64,000 nt of DNA from Nitrososphaerota archaeon (GTDB lineage: Archaea > Thermoproteota > Nitrososphaeria_A > Caldarchaeales > Caldarchaeaceae). The stretch's first letter is position 1; the number at the start of each line of letters is the position of its first letter. The notes beneath the pieces were generated by a model that saw nothing but the letters and a program-made list of their open reading frames with translations, did no database searches and was not told the origin of the DNA. Where the stretch lies: contig JBEPYN010000002.1 of NCBI GenBank assembly GCA_041641305.1, positions 448,001-512,000 of the forward strand, written 5' to 3'. Shown piece after piece: positions 4,200-19,302 of this stretch. The position numbers were made by a program, and so were the translations under genes.

Positions 4200-4466
4200 G
4201 TGCAGAAGAAGTTGACAAGTAGTCTGCTGGTACCCGGATTGATAGCTCTGGCATTGGTCTATGGGATACAGTTGGTCAACGAGGGGCATCTGTTCGAAGG
4301 TGTTCTGTTGATGGTTGTAGGTATCTTTGGCGGAGTGTATGCTGAATACCTTCTGCAGAGATGGCGCATGAGTTACTGTGACTACTGCGGGGGCAAGATG
4401 AGGAAAGATGTCGGCGGACTATACTACTGCGACAGATGCAGACGCTTCGCTCCTCGACGGGCCTAA
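4200..4466 (+). CDS. Two-TM membrane protein with C-terminal Zn ribbon
   Basis: GTG 4200; two TM helices; CDYC...CDRC. Confidence 0.7.
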   Translation: MQKKLTSSLLVPGLIALALVYGIQLVNEGHLFEGVLLMVVGIFGGVYAEYLLQRWRMSYCDYCGGKMRKDVGGLYYCDRCRRFAPRRA

Positions 4467-4480
4467 GAGGGCGTGCAGGC

Positions 4481-5944
4481 ATGTGGGCTAGAGTTTTTGT
4501 GACACTGATAATCATCTTTGGCTTCGTAGGGTACGCTTGGTATGCAGCCATGTTAGCCTCTCAGAGATTGTTTGAACGTGGAATCATCAAAGAATCACCT
4601 ATGCCAACAATAGATGTCAAAACAATAACAACACAGGTGGCTCAGTACACAGGCATCGCTGTAACCCTGCTAATGATAGCCATTGTGGTAAAGAGGGTCG
4701 TTGAATCGGGTAGACTTCTGGGCGTCATTAAAGTCTCCGACCTTCAGAGGCATCTACTACTGCTTGGACCAACCGGTAGCGGCAAAACAAACACTGCTAA
4801 ACAGGCGATTGCCTTAGCCGTACGTCGTGGTGTCAGGGTAATCGTCATCGACTGGAAAGCCCTCTTCTCTCCGCCAGCGTTTTTCACGTCTCCCCAGCTC
4901 AGTTCCGCCGCATAGGGTTCGCGTGGAGCTTCTGGCGGAGCTGGGAGGGCCCAGAAAGGCGAGTACGTTAACTTCATCAAGGGAGCCTCCGTCGTCAGGA
5001 AACTCAACGTGTGGGACAACGGTGGTAGGTCGCCGAAGGAATGCGCTGTCCTCGCTGTCGAGACATTGAGAGAAATTACACGCGATATCGCAGATGTTTC
5101 ATCCGCCAGCGCAGCCCTTCTCCTGAGGGAGCTTGTAAAGCTCTACGGGAGAGGGGTGCCGAAGACATCCGACGTAGTTTCAGCTCTTGAGAAGTTCATA
5201 AACACCGCAATGGCGGAGCGGAGACTTGCCGAGGCGAATATGGCTTCTGCATTGCTTAGAAGGATGATGTGGCTCCAGATAGACGAGGAGAGGCCTGCGA
5301 AGAACATCATAGGCTCTGACAGGGTTGTTGTCTACGACTTATCAGAGCTCGGAAGCGTCTACCTGAAAACCATCTACAGCCTCAGCATCCTTTCAAAGAC
5401 CTACTACGGGGCCCTTAGACAGGGACAGTCCCAGAAACTAGAGACGCTGGTGATTGCAGAAGAGTGCCAAAACTACATACGTGGTAGGCGTTTCGACGAG
5501 CCTCCGTCGATTGGTGAGAGAATGGCTAACGAGCTGAGGGCCTACGGCGTCGGCATGGTCCTGATAAGCCCGGACCCTGTCCAGATACCCTGGCACCTCG
5601 CCAGAGACGTTGCAGCAGTAATATCCATAGGACTTCAGGCGATACCCGACAGCGTCAAGGACCTGTTGAGAACAATTGACCCCAAACAGGCGAAGAGAGT
5701 AATGATGGGTAAGAAGGCCTACGTCTATTACAACGGCAAACTGAAGACAGCCTCTCCGCCCAAGCCTCCAAAAGAAATAGAACTAAACGTTGACGTAAAA
5801 GAGGTGATTGAAGAGACTAAGCCTGAGGAGACTGTCGAGACTACTGCTACACAACCAGACAACTCTGGGGCAGAGGAGAGTGTTCAGACAATGCCGATAG
5901 AGCAGAAGGAGCCTTTGGAGGAGGCCCAGAGAGGCGTGAATTGA
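4481..5944 (+). CDS. Membrane-anchored HerA/VirB4/CedB-like ATPase, spliced join(4481..4857,4957..5944), 454 aa
   Basis: Two N-terminal TMs, Walker A GPTGSGKT, IDWKGEY restored by splicing, Walker B LVIAEECQN, ELRAYGVGM motif. Confidence 0.85.
4858..4956 (+). other. 99-nt archaeal-type pre-mRNA intron (bulge-helix-loop) in the ATPase gene
   Basis: Central helix CTGG 4852-55/CCAG 4951-54; AAA at 4856-58 and 4955-57; inner stems GCCCTCTT/GGGAGGGC and CTCCGCCAG/CTGGCGGAG; in-frame TAG at 4913-15. Confidence 0.85.
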
Positions 5945-5990: not shown

Positions 5991-6755
5991 ATGGTCGATG
6001 AAGACGAAGAGCAGGTGACAGAGGCCCCGCATGGGCGCATACCCCCACGGGAGGGAGTCCCGCCAAGATGATGTGGTGGTTGTGAGCGCCCCGGGAAAGC
6101 CGAACCACAGACACAACAAGAAAAAGCAGAAGAGGAGCAGGCAGATGAAACCACTGGTGGATTCCCCCTCCACGGCCACATGGTCGTGGAGGAGGCTTTC
6201 GCTGACGAGTCGGTTCTACGATGTGTTAGATGTGGGGCTTCGGCCTCGCTGACAGAGGCTACACAACTCATGGAGAAGCCTTGCCAAGAACCTCGAATGA
6301 CGCAGGATAACCTTCAGACCCGGTGCGGATGTGGACGGCCGGCGACAAAGCTTATGCCGTCATACGACCCGATAACCATGACGTTTAAAGACCTCTGCCT
6401 GTGCGACGGCTGTGCCAACGACTACCTCAACATCCTCAGGAGGTCAGGCCCAGCCCTAGGCAAGATGAGGGGGAGAATACCTGCGAACGGCTATTGGTTC
6501 AACCTTTACAACACCGTCTTCCAGGAGCTGGCTGGGACATACCCGTGCCCAGCCTGCGACCAGTTCTTCGACGACCTGTATTCCGCGGTCAAACACTTCG
6601 GCGAAAAACACATCGACAAGACAAAGACTCCAGAGGAGGTTGTCATAGACGGGGTTCCCGCCCTTAGGACATGGCAATACATATGGTGTACAAAATGTCT
6701 GAGGTTCTTCGAGAACGAGCGACATTTCCGTTCACATCTCCGAGACCATAGGTGA
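5991..6755 (+). CDS. Multi-Zn-finger protein with acidic N-terminus, spliced join(5991..6031,6098..6755), 232 aa
   Basis: One frame interrupted by a single TGA inside a BHB-bounded insert. CxxC motifs and C2H2-like fingers (CPAC...HFGEKH, CTKC...HLRDH). Confidence 0.75.
6032..6097 (+). other. 66-nt canonical BHB pre-mRNA intron
   Basis: Outer GGC 6023-25/GCC 6099-6101; central CCCG/CGGG; bulges CAT 6030-32 and AAA 6096-98; inner GGGCGC/GCGCCC; in-frame TGA at 6069-71. Confidence 0.8.
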
Positions 6756-7120
6756 AGCAGATGAAGTTCAGGGGAAAAATTTACAGGGATGGGGGAAGGC
6801 TGAAGCTGGTCTTTGACAAGCCCCTCCCGCGTGGGAGGGTGACGCTGCTGCTGACGAGGGTGGACGGAAAGGCTATGGAGTTGAAGTTCGATACAATGAT
6901 AACCAACAACGACCCCTATCGATTAAAGTGTCGGTTGCCACCGTTCCCGGAGCTGAGGCCCGGGGCGGTGGTCGAAGGAATAATCGAAGACGAGCTTAGA
7001 TGCCGCTGGTGCGGAGCCAAGTGCTCCGCACTCATCAACAACCTCTGCGACCATTGTTTCGAGGTATTCAACAGCCCCTACAAACCCCCTCTGGGAGAGG
7101 GTTGGGGAAGGCTGACGTAG
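6752..7120 (+). CDS. Hypothetical protein with C-terminal Zn finger
   Basis: GTGA overlap with the upstream stop; CRWC...CDHC. Confidence 0.7.
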   Translation: MKQMKFRGKIYRDGGRLKLVFDKPLPRGRVTLLLTRVDGKAMELKFDTMITNNDPYRLKCRLPPFPELRPGAVVEGIIEDELRCRWCGAKCSALINNLCDHCFEVFNSPYKPPLGEGWGRLT

Positions 7121-7285
7121 ACCACCGGCCAAAAACCCCAACCTCCGGGCGGTGACCCGGGGTAAAACCCGGGCGCCCCCGGCTATTTTTTCCAAGGGGC
7201 GTGTCCCGTCGGGAGCTTTCCCGGCGGGGCATGCGCCCCCTTGGCCGGGAGGCTCCCTAAGAGGGCCGCTCCGGAGGTCTAAAAA

Positions 7286-8221
7286 ATGGGCAACAACGAG
7301 AAGTGGACTCTGCCGGTGGTCTATGGAAACCGGAGGGTTCGTAGGGAGCTCATCGAGGTGCTGATGACTGTTGAAGAGTACAACGGATACACGGTGCTTT
7401 ACCTATGGTTCCACTTCCCCTACGACTGGTTTACAGCGCTAAAACCCTATGACTGGGAGCCTGTTGCAATAGCGTTCAAAGACAGCCGACCCGCCAGAAT
7501 CTTCTGGAGACCTCACTGGGCGCTTAGATGCACACGGCCTGTACTTGTGGATAAGAAGACTGTTGTCTTCTACATAAGCCCCATCAAGGGAAACGCTCCG
7601 AGATGCTCCCACTTCGATGTACTGCGGTCCATACTGGAAGACCCGTCGACCTACGGAATACCTTATCGAAAGTTCAAAGAGCTACCGCTGAAAAGCCTTC
7701 TGAAGGATGGGTGGCCGCCCGAGCACGAAGCCCGCGCCGAAAGCTTCAGAGAATACGTTCACCGAGGCCTTGAAGACATAAAAAGATGCGGGGGCGTATA
7801 CAGCGTGGTAATGGGCTTCTTCACAGACCTCCTCAGGGCCTACCTTATGGCTAGGAGGAGAAACCTCGACGGCTTCTACTATTATCTTAAGACGGCATGG
7901 GAAAACACCACAGAGAGGTTCAGGAGGAGCGGACCCGGCTACGAGATGTACAACCTACTCGTCGCCGTCAAGTACCTGCTGATGCTGCAGAAAGCGACTG
8001 GTGAAGGGCCGACGGAGCGGTTCTGGCGGGACATGGAAGGCGACCCTATCCTTCCCCCAGTGGTTAGAGCGTTGACAGGCCACATCTGGTACCCCATAGG
8101 GTTGCTGATAGCAGATGGGTATACGCCAGCCCAGCCGTTCAAAGACTTCGTTGATAAAAAATGGAGACAATGGTTCAGAGACGCCCTCAAAGCCTGCAAT
8201 AAACACGCAAACGAAGCCTAA
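7286..8221 (+). CDS. Hypothetical protein (weak NPP1/Vps62-like YLWFHF..DW..DWEPV motif)
   Basis: 311-aa ORF with GGAGGT RBS; family assignment is tentative. Confidence 0.75.
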   Translation: MGNNEKWTLPVVYGNRRVRRELIEVLMTVEEYNGYTVLYLWFHFPYDWFTALKPYDWEPVAIAFKDSRPARIFWRPHWALRCTRPVLVDKKTVVFYISPIKGNAPRCSHFDVLRSILEDPSTYGIPYRKFKELPLKSLLKDGWPPEHEARAESFREYVHRGLEDIKRCGGVYSVVMGFFTDLLRAYLMARRRNLDGFYYYLKTAWENTTERFRRSGPGYEMYNLLVAVKYLLMLQKATGEGPTERFWRDMEGDPILPPVVRALTGHIWYPIGLLIADGYTPAQPFKDFVDKKWRQWFRDALKACNKHANEA

Positions 8222-8584
8222 ACCCCCCACCTTTTTTCCAAGCCACGTGGTCCCGTCTGGGGTTTTTCCCTGGGCGGGGCCATGTGGCTCCGCTCCGGGG
8301 GAGGCTCCATGATGGGTTGCGGCGTCCAACGCCCCTGTGACAGTCCCCGAGGCGTGTGAGCGCGTAGGGGATGAGGGGCGAGGGCCTGGCCGCCTCCTCC
8401 ACGTGGAGGCCGGGGTTTGACCAAGCCCCTTTCCCTCGGGCGCCATGCAGAGGGTTTGGGAGAGGTGTGGCTGAACACCGTGTTCCTATTCCCCTCATCA
8501 GGGAGGGGTGTCGGGGCACGGCTAGTAGGCCATGCTTCCCCAAATTCCTCTGCGTGGTTGTCGGAAAAAGGGGCTGGGGAGGTG

Positions 8585-8695
8585 ATGGATATGAAAAACT
8601 GGAAGAGGTGTTTAAAATGCGAAGAGTTGAACGACATAAACGCAGCATTCTGCCATTACTGCGGTAGAACGTTAGAAGACGCGGAGGAGGTCTAA
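8585..8695 (+). CDS. 36-aa Zn-ribbon protein
   Basis: GGAGGTG RBS; CLKC...CHYC. Confidence 0.65.
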   Translation: MDMKNWKRCLKCEELNDINAAFCHYCGRTLEDAEEV

Positions 8696-9001
8696 ATGTA
8701 CCTAGTGAAGCTGCACACGGACCTTCGGGTACAACGACTCGTCTCGCGACCAGTGGAGATATTCTTTGGAGACTTGGTGACGACGATACCGAAGTCGGCT
8801 ATAGTCTGCGATGCATGCAACCAACAGGTCGCAGTCACGGAGCAGGACCTGAAAAACTTAGCGATGGGGTACGCTGTTGTAGACGGGGAATTCATCCTAG
8901 AGGTCGTATGTGAGGAATGCAGACAGCGCTACTTCGACGACATCCCGGTGTTCGACACATTAGAGGATGCCGAGGAGGTCTACGAGAAGAAGGTGAGGTG
9001 A
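8696..9001 (+). CDS. Zn-finger protein (paralog of next ORF)
   Basis: CDAC...CEEC; abuts the upstream stop. Confidence 0.75.
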   Translation: MYLVKLHTDLRVQRLVSRPVEIFFGDLVTTIPKSAIVCDACNQQVAVTEQDLKNLAMGYAVVDGEFILEVVCEECRQRYFDDIPVFDTLEDAEEVYEKKVR

Positions 9002-9003
9002 AG

Positions 9004-9285
9004 ATGGAGTTCCTAGTTTCGCTATTTACTGACAAAGAGCTCTTGAAAAAACTGCTGACCCCAAAGATTGTCATTAATGATTATGGTTACACGATTGTTC
9101 CGGCTAGGCTTGAATGCAGCCACTGTGAGCAGAAACTGCCTGTGAGGGAACCGGGAGGCTTTGCCCTCTTTGACACGGAGGGGACTCTATGGGAACTACT
9201 ATGTGAAGAGTGTAAGCAACGATTCCATTCAGGAACACCGGTTTACGAAACTTTGGACCAAGCTATTCCAAAGCAGAGGTGGTGA
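9004..9285 (+). CDS. Zn-finger protein (paralog of previous ORF)
   Basis: GAGGTGA RBS; CSHC...CEEC...PVYETLD. Confidence 0.75.
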   Translation: MEFLVSLFTDKELLKKLLTPKIVINDYGYTIVPARLECSHCEQKLPVREPGGFALFDTEGTLWELLCEECKQRFHSGTPVYETLDQAIPKQRW

Positions 9286-9287
9286 AG

Positions 9288-11088
9288 ATGGTCAGGGTAG
9301 TGGAGCTTCGGGAGGAGACTGAGCTTCTAGAAAAACTCAAGAATCGCTTTCCACACACTAGTCTACGTAGATATCAGGCCGACATCGCTAATAGGGTCTA
9401 CGAGAGCCTTTCCAACGGCTCTAGCATTCTTCTGGAGGGCCCTACGGGGCTGGGGAAGAGGCTATGAGGAGACTGTTTATGGGGGGTGGTTGGCTGGCTG
9501 GCGTCTCCGAGCCTCCTATACAGCCCCTGTATGGGCCGCGGTGAGCGCCTACGCGGAGGAGAAAGGTCTGAGGGTTCTATGGCTCACCCGGACGGCGTCC
9601 CAAGTAGCTCACATCGCCAGCGAGATAGGATGCATGCCCATCTACGGCCGCCGGCTTCTCTGTATCCATGAGACGGTTAGCAAGGTTGAGCAGAGACGGT
9701 TCAACGCGGCTTGTAGAGTTGTACGACTATCCGGACGTTGCTCATACTATCCCGGAAGGCCTAGCCAAATAAAGGCGAAGACTGTTGGAGAGATTAAAGA
9801 TGCCGGTAGGAAGTCGGTCACATGTCCCTACGAGCTTCAGCTGACATCGATGCCATACTCGACGTCGCTGGTCGCCACCCATAAACAGTTGTCTGTAGTT
9901 TCCTGGCTTTTGGCAAAATGGCGTTGGACCCGCGAGCGAACCATCTTGGTGCTCGACGAGTTCCAGAACATCTTGAAGACTGTTCTCGACCTCTCAAAAG
10001 ACGCCATAAGCCTGGCAACGCTCCACAAGGCCGCCGCAGAGGCAGCAAGGTATGGCTTCAGGGATATTTCCAGCAGTCTTTCAGAAGCTTATCAAAGATA
10101 CAAGGCGGTTGACGTTGACGAGGCTGAGGTAGAAAACCTACTGCCCAGCTTCGAAGAGCTCTTCGAGGCGGGGCAGGAGATACAGGCTAGGAAACTTGAG
10201 GAGAATGTTGTACCCGCCAGCTATGTGTTGAGCGTCGCAGACTTTAAGGCTGCTCTCGGCCAGCAGAAGCCCCTCCTAGTCAGGGAGGGTGAACGGGTTT
10301 GGCTGGAGGCGCTAGCAGACCCACGCGAGGAGCTTGAAAAGATTCTCGAAGGCTGGAGAACGGTCATAGCTATGACGGCCACGATGGATGCGGAACTCGT
10401 TGAACGCATGGCTTCAACCCAAGTGACGCTGTTGCGAGCAGGGTGGCCCTTCGACGATAATCTGAAGGCATACATTGTCAGCGGCCTTACGACGAGATAC
10501 AGGGACAGGGATGTGGAGCTCTATGAAGATGTCCGATGGCTTATAGAACAATCTCATGGAATGAGGACTCTCGTCTTCCTACCCAGCTATGAATTTGCTT
10601 CAATGATTCAGAAGAGGCTTAGCGACGCTATCGCCGAGCAACGGGGGATGACGCAGGAACAGGTGGAAGCCACGGCCGCTGAATTCGCGGAGGGTGGAAA
10701 AACGCTTTTAGCCGTCTTCGGTGGAAGGCTGGCAGAGGGCATCAACCTCCAAGCCGACTTGGTTATGCTGGTGGGCATACCATTCGCGAAACCATCACCG
10801 CGAACAAAGAAGCTCGAGGACAAGCTTGAGAATGTCTTTGGGAGCAGTGACCTTTCCCGGCTACATGGACTAGTTTTACCGGCCCTCTTTGCCGCCGTGC
10901 AGGCCGCCGGTAGGGCTGTCAGAGGCCCCAATGATAGGGCTCTGGTCCTGCTCGTCGACGACAGATACCGCCGTTTGACAAAACACTTGCCCAGATGGTT
11001 CAGAGACTTGGTCTCAGATAAGCCGGTCAAGCTCACAGATGTTCCCATTCTATTGGATGAGTGGTTGTCATGGATGAAGAGCGTTTGA
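9288..11088 (+). CDS. XPD/Rad3/DinG-family Fe-S DNA helicase, spliced join(9288..9458,9520..11088), 579 aa
   Basis: Q motif RRYQ, Walker A GPTGLGKT restored by splicing, four Fe-S cysteines, LDEFQN, GRLAEGIN, QAAGRAVRG. Confidence 0.9.
9459..9519 (+). other. 61-nt canonical BHB pre-mRNA intron in the helicase Walker A motif
   Basis: Outer GGGGCTG 9446-52/CAGCCCC 9521-27; central GGGA/TCCT; bulges AGA 9457-59 and ATA 9518-20; inner GGCT/AGCC and GGAGAC/GTCTCC. The insert causes a stop and a frameshift. Confidence 0.92.
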
Positions 11089-12667: not shown

Positions 12668-13066
12668 ATGGACTCGTCTCCCGAGAGGCTGTTTGATGAC
12701 TCGGGAGCGCCCGCGGTTCCAAGGCCCGCCGCGGGCGACAAGTGCCAGGGCCTGAGTTCGGGGGGTGGTTCGACTTATGAGCGTCTGCTGGAGCGCTACG
12801 GCGGCTTCTTCGAGGAGCTTGGCTATGGTTGTCTCGCCAGCTTTAAGCATCTGATTGAGCAAGTGGAGGTGACTATCGATACGGCGACATCTAATGATGT
12901 CAACCTGTTTGCTAAGCTCCATGTGCTAAAGTCTGCGAGGGCCTCGGTAGAAGTATTTACGGAGTATTATAGTCGATTCCTGCCACCTACTGTCGTCAAT
13001 AACCTGCGAGCTGACCTGACATTTCTGCTTGAGCGTGCTGAGGAGGTGGTGTTGACTTTTGGCTGA
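12668..13066 (+). CDS. Hypothetical protein
   Basis: AGGTGG RBS, ATG 12668; overlaps the MTase start. Confidence 0.65.
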   Translation: MDSSPERLFDDSGAPAVPRPAAGDKCQGLSSGGGSTYERLLERYGGFFEELGYGCLASFKHLIEQVEVTIDTATSNDVNLFAKLHVLKSARASVEVFTEYYSRFLPPTVVNNLRADLTFLLERAEEVVLTFG

Positions 13067-13970
13067 ATTCATAGACCCCACCATTCTGAAAGGGTGGTGG
13101 GGTTCCGAGGAATACCAGAGGCTGTTATCCTTCGAGCCGGAAAATGCAGGTGACTACTATCGGTTACCATTCGCCAAATACAACGAGCTCTTTCCGTTCA
13201 TCAAAGTCAAGATTGAGCACCCTGCAGTGATGAACCCATACTTGGCGATTTTCCTTTGGCGGCGTTACGTAAAACCAAATGATGTAATAATCGACCCTAT
13301 GGCTGGGATAGGGGGTACACCCGATATGTAGGGGCCCAGCTTTATCCCAGCCATAGCCTGCAGATTGACCAATGATAACCACTTAATCCTCAACGATATT
13401 GAGTCGACTTACGCCAGACTCTCTGAGGAGCTTCTTTCGGAGATGCTGGTCGTTACTAATCACAGCACCCTGCTGGACGTCTACAACGTAAACGCTGCCT
13501 CTCTTTATGAACTTCTTAGACCAAGAGGACTTGCTGGAGGCGTACGGAGGAGGGTTATTATTACCTCTCCTCCGTATGGCCTCCTCAGGCCCTGTGATAG
13601 CTTCAGCCCGAGGTTTGGCAGACTGACGGTAACTTCCGCCGGTAACCTTAGCGTGATAACCGGTAAACACTTTAGGGCGGCTTGGCTGGGCGTGCTGACT
13701 TCGATGTATCTCTGTCTCAACCAGTTCCATAGAAACCGTGACTTGGCTGTGATTGTCCTCAAAAACTTCAAGAATAACAATGTGGAAAAGGCTGTTGGAA
13801 AAAACCTCGTCAATTTAACGGTTGAACTCGCGGAGTTCGTTGGATTCAAACATCTCGAGACGCTGAAGTTCAAGATTTCAGGCAGCCACTTCGCCAGATA
13901 CCACGACATCAAGCAACATGTCCATGACCTCTGGCACGAATATGCGCTGGTCTTCCGCAAGGTGGTGTAG
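13059..13970 (+). CDS. Amino (N4-C/N6-A) DNA methyltransferase, spliced join(13059..13318,13340..13970), 296 aa
   Basis: HPA motif, SAM-binding IIDPMAGIGGT, catalytic IITSPPY. Both ORF halves are in one frame, separated by a TAG inside a BHB insert. Confidence 0.85.
13319..13339 (+). other. 21-nt canonical BHB pre-mRNA intron next to the SAM-binding motif
   Basis: 16-bp outer helix CTATGGCTGGGATAGG/TTTATCCCAGCCATAG; central GGGT/GCCC; bulges ACA 13317-19 and AGC 13338-40; inner CCC/GGG; in-frame TAG at 13329-31. Confidence 0.9.
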
Positions 13971-19062: not shown

Positions 19063-19143
19063 GCTCTATCTCACGCCGCATAAGCAACAATGGCTGAATT
19101 TATGCAATCGTGTTTAAATATCCTCAAACAAGAATCAAAACAT

Positions 19144-19248
19144 GGGCCCGTAGCTTAGCATGGATAGAGCGCTGGCCTCCGGAGCCAGAGGTCGTGAGCG
19201 GCGGTACGGAAGTGCCGCGCCGGCAGGGTTCAAATCCCACCGGGCCCG
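19144..19248 (+). tRNA. tRNA-Arg(CCG) with a 30-nt non-canonical intron (19197-19226) at position 51/52
   Basis: Acceptor GGGCCCG/CGGGCCC; anticodon arm CTGGC-CT-CCG-GA-GCCAG. The T arm GTGGG-TTCAAAT-CCCAC forms after cutting bulges TGA and AGG around helix GTCG/CGGC. TTTAAATA upstream. Confidence 0.93.
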
Positions 19249-19302
19249 TAAAATATGTCACTGGAGGGGTTGTGGATTTTTAACAAGCCGTGAATATAGC
19301 TT

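Follow-up and report, generated by a model that had tools for sequence, protein, structure and literature searches.

What interrupts the gene of a putative DNA-transfer ATPase inside its D-W-K-G-E-Y motif, and by what route could a full-length protein be made across an interruption that holds a stop codon? The gene lies on contig JBEPYN010000002.1 of assembly GCA_041641305.1, in a stretch of 64,000 nt that was analysed as a whole and is referred to here as the window; unless another locus is named, coordinates are window positions. The genome that carries it is 1.66 Mb long and 99%-complete, and its best protein matches are to Candidatus Caldarchaeum. Our answer is that positions 4858-4956 are very probably a bulge-helix-bulge (BHB), or tRNA-type, intron in the coding sequence of a CedD/VirD4-like ATPase, carried by an accessory element of a hot-spring archaeon of the Caldarchaeales (Aigarchaeota). 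This reading is a prediction, and one that the comparative data support very well.

The interrupted motif and its alleles

The 99-nt insert, 4858-4956, stands between the Lys and Gly codons of the D-W-K-G-E-Y motif and contains an in-frame TAG (4913-4915), while both of its flanks share one frame. Exon 1 (4436..4857, on the + strand like all exon, intron, helix and bulge segments given in this section) encodes N-terminal hydrophobic segments, a Walker A motif (GPTGSGKT) and the sequence ...VIVIDW followed by two bases of the Lys codon, as aligned with the intron-less proteins P0002, P0004, P0006, P0010 and P0012. Its open reading frame (ORF) opens at ATG 4436, and homologues favour ATG 4481 (MWAR...) as the true start. 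Exon 2 (4957..5944) continues as (K)GEYVNFIKG... to the stop codon. Removal of 4858-4956 joins TGG AA to A GGC GAG TAC and gives W-K-G-E-Y; the joined frame at 4857/4957 matches the DWKGEY of intron-less homologues, which align without gaps at this point and in which G, E and Y are nearly invariant.

An earlier sequence-only reading of this DNA had proposed a 99-nt relaxed intron here, with a CTGG/CCAG helix flanked by AAA on each side, a long inner stem, and a displaced exon helix GTAaTCGTC/GGCGAgTAC with a 5-nt loop. Length, position and fold of the insert are all as it claimed, and each of the named structural elements is reproduced by the unconstrained minimum free energy (MFE) fold of 4830-4975. 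This fold has -60 kcal/mol against -47.7 ± 3.8 for shuffled sequences (z = -3.3), and none of 200 shuffles folds as well as the native sequence. The same structure is the MFE at 75 C as well as at 37 C, and the window allele is among those with both bulges open in the MFE.

In the central 4-bp helix H, the exonic strand CTGG (4852..4855), consisting of the last Asp base and the Trp codon, is paired with the intronic strand CCAG (4951..4954). Archaeal EndA cuts after the second bulge base on each strand, which in the 5′ bulge AAA (4856..4858) places the predicted cut between 4857 and 4858, and in the 3′ bulge AAA (4955..4957) between 4956 and 4957, the latter position being the third Lys base. 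The inner helix h′ pairs GCCCTCTT (4859-4866) with GGGAGGGC (4943-4950) in 8 contiguous pairs; as RNA the inner stem begins GCCCUCUU/GGGAGGGC, and it extends into a long rod, giving the TAG-bearing intron (4858..4956) the shape of a 99-nt rod-like hairpin, as delimited by the fold and by the alleles. The outer, exon-exon helix of the MFE folds is made of GTAaTCGTC (4838..4846) and GGCGAgTAC (4958..4966): its core, TCGTC (4842-4846) with GGCGA (4958-4962), is extended by GTA/TAC and displaced by 5 nt through the unpaired ATCGA (4847-4851). No Rfam match was obtained in 4700-5100 at E <= 1, and no C/D-box or other functional-RNA motif was seen in the intron, which was inspected by eye only.

Based on this fold, a pathway of expression can be proposed. 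In the pre-mRNA the exonic CUGG would pair with the intronic CCAG, the long inner stem would close the 5′ AAA bulge, and the displaced exon-exon helix would close the 3′ AAA into a 5x3 internal loop, which corresponds to a relaxed, HBh′-like form. The two-subunit EndA of the host, made of a catalytic alpha subunit and a paralogue without Tyr and His, would then cleave each bulge behind its second base, the exons would be joined by RtcB to read ...D-W-K-G-E-Y..., and the intron would probably be released as a circle. Unspliced mRNA would be translated only as far as the TAG, into a 159-aa stub, and the full-length ATPase would depend on splicing; any regulatory role of this dependence would be conjectural.

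To place the insert among its relatives, 103 loci were gathered from 75 genomes of the same order, metagenome contigs, species-representative genomes and contigs encoding database hits. At the DWK/GEY junction these loci present 31 distinct insert-bearing alleles, from Caldarchaeales genomes and hot-spring metagenomes, and 25 intron-less ones. The inserts range from 25 to 170 nt (25, 69, 79, 83, 89, 95, 98, 99, 100, 113, 114, 117, 120, 123, 135, 142, 155, 156, 166 and 170 nt), and all 31 alleles nevertheless share the core pattern CUGG-AAA-[stem]...[stem]-CCRG-RRA-GGN, with 4/4 pairs in the central helix and 3-nt bulges. The intronic strand of H is CCAG or CCGG and varies solely at the base opposite U, which is A or G. 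Between lineages the inner stem (3-8 contiguous pairs) changes in sequence with pairing kept (GCCCUC/GAGGGC, GCGGGC/GCCCGC, GCCGAGG/CCUCGGC, GCUGGGGG/CCUCCAGC): it covaries, and the structure is maintained by compensatory change. The relaxed BHB intron that had been proposed from the window allele in a transfer-type ATPase is thus borne out by a splice motif kept at the same codon junction in 31 allelic variants.

The frame gives a second line of evidence. Insert length is not divisible by 3 in 13 of the 31 alleles, so that the 300 codons downstream are out of frame unless the insert is removed. A cut after the second base of each bulge restores the product in every allele, including those with the 13 frameshifting lengths. 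At the third Lys codon position, which doubles as the last base of the 3′ bulge, 47/47 intron-bearing loci have A, while intron-less loci have A in 13 cases and G in 23; such a constraint is explained only by the RNA motif.

A third line is precise loss. On a 50-row maximum-likelihood tree, intron presence requires only 3 changes; the deep branches are intron-less, and one further intron-less clade, of 17 rows, sits among intron-bearing ones. The closest relative of the window allele is its sister L108, the gene for P0002 (82% nucleotide identity, support 0.91), and the two sit together inside an intron-bearing clade (support 0.999). L108 reads GACTGGAAAGGG: the insert is absent exactly at the predicted cut sites, in keeping with the intron originally proposed.

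Several observations weigh against the intron reading. Unconstrained folds have the central helix, 5′ bulge and inner stem in the MFE for 27-28 of the 31 alleles, and the 3′ bulge is fully open in the MFE of only about 1/3 to 1/2. In the remaining ~1/2 to 2/3, depending on temperature, part of the 3′ bulge is paired, with exon CCUC engaging GAGG; the energetic penalty for holding it open reaches 6 kcal/mol at 37 C and 3 kcal/mol at 75 C. Since the 3′ bulge is often paired in the MFE, cutting there would call on the tolerance for which (alpha-beta)2 enzymes are known. The outer helix h is non-canonical, being displaced in the window allele and weak or competing in many others. Lastly, alleles with in-frame, stop-free inserts are listed publicly as read-through proteins: P0005 and P0009 are annotated at full length with a spurious loop of 38-45 residues in DWKGEY. 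With its strong h′ and displaced h, the predicted motif fits the relaxed HBh′ class and not the strict hBHBh′ one.

Two side observations concern the introns themselves. Those of 155/156 nt (L078, L083, L039, L040) resemble the 113/114-nt form (L037, L065, L072) with a ~42-nt internal partial duplication added, and in those of 166-170 nt GC-rich palindromes recur, GTCCGGAGCCGGAC being one. Changes in intron length seem to come about through duplications and deletions in the interior, with the ends fixed.

Alternatives to splicing

The alternative that survives best, though we regard it as quite unlikely, is that the insert stays in the message. The gene would then be dead, or would yield two separate polypeptides, one a membrane/Walker A stub of 159 aa and the other a C-terminal part of 311 aa that starts at GTG 5009. 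Gene callers split P0003, P0008 and P0011 in just this manner, leaving annotated C-terminal halves of 302-360 aa without Walker A, and one allele is really decaying. This G004 allele (L012/L028/L103, G004:C36) has a 123-nt insert at the same site with a weakened motif, and is the only one without the central helix and without either bulge in the MFE at both temperatures. It looks like a pseudogene, with a frameshift in exon 2 after ...AALLLR and a Walker A reading GPTRSGKT (Gly to Arg). Motif loss in the one clearly decayed allele speaks for the intron reading. Elsewhere, the ratio of nonsynonymous to synonymous divergence (dN/dS) over both exons is 0.10-0.19 between intron-bearing alleles, at dS from 0.08 to >2, which indicates purifying selection on both exons of the ATPase. 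The first in-frame start after the intron TAG is GTG 5009, and the 17 conserved codons GEY...KLN lie before it; these are therefore translatable only from a spliced message, and would be left untranslated if the insert were kept. In addition, insert lengths and frames vary around an unchanging BHB core and a covarying stem, and a selected splice motif would be useless in a split or dead gene. Public gene calls are wrong wherever the intron is present, which matters for annotation, as such genes are listed as truncated halves or as read-through proteins with a spurious loop of 33-45 residues. Among 5.8 billion clustered proteins there was no full-length spliced protein identical to the window exons; the best full-length match is only 77% identical, and there is accordingly no assembled cDNA-like record for the window allele.

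A miniature inverted-repeat transposable element (MITE) or other DNA insertion, flanked by a 5-bp target duplication GAAAG and removed, if at all, at the DNA level, has much less room still, and we consider it highly improbable. The window allele does carry GAAAG at either flank of its insert, which itself forms a long inverted repeat. The sequence-only reading had itself named dispersed copies with target duplications as the sign of a MITE, and none were found: the insert is single-copy in the 1.66-Mb genome (blastn), the 31 intron variants match nowhere else in the genome (blastn-short), and a search of 185,579 species genomes and of IMG/VR for a 36-mer from the insert gave no hit. The flanks, moreover, read GGAAAG versus AGAGAG or GGGGAG in 27 of the 31 alleles, so that the ‘duplication’ is simply the two bulges, and every insert lies at one codon junction of one gene family.

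Translational bypass, as a T4 gene 60-like hop from AAA to AAA before GGC, or plain read-through can point to the matching take-off and landing codons (AAA...AAA) of the window allele, to the hairpin after the take-off site and to stop-free, in-frame inserts in some alleles, and yet is hardly credible, as the landing triplet is AGA or GGA in 27/31 alleles and AAA/AAA occurs in only 4/31 (with a 3′ bulge of AGA in most alleles, the matching landing codon is missing), inserts reach 170 nt, 13/31 shift the frame, and what is conserved marks an EndA substrate, not a bypass element.

Host machinery and known systems

For the BHB intron to be spliced as proposed, the host would have to supply a suitable endonuclease and ligase. 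The genome has two EndA genes (PF01974; L104:1234-1776 and L105:1249-1791), paralogues of ~180 aa. The alpha paralogue aligns without gaps to the catalytic subunit of A. pernix (3P1Z_B, E 7e-54), in an alignment that takes in the catalytic Tyr, His and Lys as well as the region of the Crenarchaea-specific loop; the second has both EndA domains and is without Tyr and His. By these features the pair is an alpha+beta-like EndA of the type expected for (alpha-beta)2 enzymes. Enzymes of this type, which cut relaxed motifs, have been reported for Aigarchaeota (PMC5829648), and a deletion within the Crenarchaea-specific loop abolishes the activity of P. aerophilum EndA (PMC2724299). RtcB is also encoded (G000:C1:535991-538729; L106, L107), in one open frame of 975 aa, and ARAGORN found 46 tRNA genes, ~8 of them with short introns.

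It had been suggested that splicing, and hence DNA transfer, might be restricted to hosts with this EndA type. Two EndA paralogues are present in 5/5 other gene-carrying genomes (2 with intron-bearing and 3 with intron-less alleles); as all five are alike in EndA, they offer no contrast on such a restriction. Two side observations were made on the RNA-processing genes. The RtcB frame is interrupted by a 460-aa intein, with matches to the intein splicing domain and to LAGLIDADG. A tRNA-Arg(CCG) gene with a 10-nt intron was located by ARAGORN at ~19143-19249 of the window (G000:C2:467143-467249), ~14 kb downstream of the ATPase gene.

Splicing of a coding sequence by the tRNA machinery is confirmed in Archaea, in the literature searched, only for cbf5, and reviews up to 2025 cite cbf5 as the sole case (PMC2738675, PMC6379350, PMC12397907). 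This gene encodes a pseudouridine synthase, and its pre-mRNA intron occurs in Desulfurococcales and Sulfolobales (Watanabe 2002; Yoshinari 2006; Yokobori 2009, PMC2738675). Like the ATPase intron, it is a BHB-type intron inside a coding sequence, often with a relaxed motif and tens of nt long, in hosts with hetero-oligomeric EndA; it too has been gained and lost in individual lineages, and some relatives lack it precisely. The two differ in the gene, which here is a CedD/VirD4-like ATPase, and in the lineage, here Caldarchaeales/Aigarchaeota. Whereas cbf5 is a core gene, the ATPase gene belongs to an accessory, patchy element; length diversity at the one site is far larger (25-170 nt over the 31 alleles), and there are signs of intron-limited lateral exchange. 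Splicing of the ATPase intron is predicted from sequence, unlike that of cbf5, which has been confirmed. What is new here is the gene, the lineage, the genomic setting, the allelic series and a lead on intron mobility, the kind of intron being already known from cbf5. The locus would add a second gene family, in another major lineage, to the coding-sequence BHB introns, and its 31 alleles at one site form a natural mutagenesis series from which the needs of the enzyme in an mRNA context could be defined.

The motif also resembles the non-canonical (HBh′ or bulge-helix-loop, BHL) tRNA introns of Thermoproteota, substrates of (alpha-beta)2 EndA in which 3-nt bulges flank a 4-bp helix, the inner helix is strong and the outer one is weak or displaced (Marck and Grosjean 2003; PMC5829648; PMC2724299). 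The same enzymes are presumed to act on the ATPase transcript. In contrast to those introns, the substrate here would be an mRNA without a tRNA body, in which the exon strand is fixed by codons (Asp-Trp-Lys / Gly-Glu-Tyr).

As for the ATPase itself, Pfam assigns DUF87/HerA-central and TrwB_AAD_bind, and the solved structures nearest to it are of HerA type. Among NCBIfam models CedD scores best (NF053655; E 1.7e-25, 89.7 bits, far below the equivalog cut-off of 600), followed by CedB. DNA import by the Ced system requires CedD, a membrane ATPase of VirD4-like type (PMC11823120). In common with CedD and TedD of the Ced and Ted import systems, the protein belongs to the HerA-FtsK superfamily of P-loop proteins and has an N-terminal membrane segment (PMC11823120; NF053655). 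It is shorter, at ~470 aa against the 527 positions of the model, and its gene stands on an accessory island beside genes for an XPD-like helicase and a primase, its function being read from sequence. ‘Transfer ATPase’ is a reasonable label for a CedD/VirD4-like protein of the HerA superfamily, and the gene likely encodes the DNA-translocating motor of a transfer module on the island.

The island and the possible spread of its introns

The ATPase gene is present in 18/75 genomes of the order and in 3/11 others in the genus, a patchy distribution that fits an accessory element. A tblastn search of described plasmids and phages with the intron-less P0002 gave no match; the element is thus not tied to a described plasmid or virus. 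Downstream of the ATPase in the window lie the XPD-like helicase and the primase large subunit, and in the sister locus L108 a neighbouring gene has a faint match to CedA1.

Further inserts were observed in the island. One of 66 nt (6032-6097, window 6023-6101), upstream of a zinc-finger ORF, has as its MFE a canonical hBHBh′ motif, composed of a GGC/GCC outer helix, a CCCG/CGGG central helix, CAU and AAA bulges and a GGGCGC/GCGCCC inner helix. Another, of 61 nt (9459-9519, window 9453-9520), interrupts the XPD-like helicase gene at the Lys-Thr of Walker A, 4.5 kb downstream of the ATPase, with a GGGA/UCCU central helix and AGA/AUA bulges. Inserts at this XPD site were also seen in L002 (~5902), L006 (~2785), L007 (~3980), L036 (~2532), L038 (~4873), L010 (~2908) and L085 (~4466); they differ in length between relatives, while many other relatives are intron-less (GGGAAGACN), and in L010 the XPD intron is present together with an intron-less ATPase allele. 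With similar introns in neighbouring genes, the island appears to need RNA splicing by the host for its expression. Further downstream, between an ORF ending at 13066 and one starting at 13365, positions 13290-13400 form a long near-perfect hairpin (z = -2.7) whose MFE is without an obvious BHB.

How such introns reach new alleles is addressed by one locus, L036 (VAPR01003202.1). Its ATPase intron, of 99 nt, is identical to that of the window at 97/99 positions (0.98), while the exons have ~0.6 identity (66% in exon 1 and 64% in exon 2 at the nucleotide level; dS ~2.7). The L036 gene is sister to L038, whose intron differs (83 nt), and the last 60 nt of its exon 1 are identical to those of L038. 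Further along, a 1.1-kb block with two zinc-finger-type genes (6010-7090) is ~100% identical between L036 and the window (1.0), the next 2.2 kb (7090-9300) are without counterpart in L036, identity around the 61-nt XPD intron is 0.93-0.97, and in XPD exon 2 it returns to ~0.6. The XPD intron thus matches at 59/61 positions between exons that are ~60-70% identical. Intron divergence lies 3-8 times below dS in typical pairs, and 110 times below it in the pair of L036 and the window.

These patterns indicate that the elements have a mosaic, recombining architecture. The simplest reading suggested by the L036 data is lateral intron replacement between elements that also swapped the 1.1-kb block. 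More generally, mRNA introns may move laterally as units between diverged alleles, in a homing-like replacement without a homing endonuclease, a proposal that we offer tentatively and rate at slightly below an even call. The lateral-exchange reading draws on a single metagenome contig, that of L036, in which the switch points share only 16-17 nt; this argues against an assembly join, without excluding one. If lateral movement is real, a mobile island whose transfer and replication genes need the EndA and RtcB of the host would also be spreading BHB introns. The spread of BHB introns is called an open question in a 2026 preprint on Asgard tRNA introns (10.64898/2026.10.13.758758), and the identity islands described here would give a handle on how these introns spread or reach new sites.

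A second pair, L074 and L080 (introns of 169 and 170 nt, dS 0.64), was considered as a case of intron-specific transfer and rejected. Across exon 1 and the intron and ~100 nt into exon 2, L080 follows L074; beyond that point it matches L088, which makes this an ordinary crossover inside exon 2.
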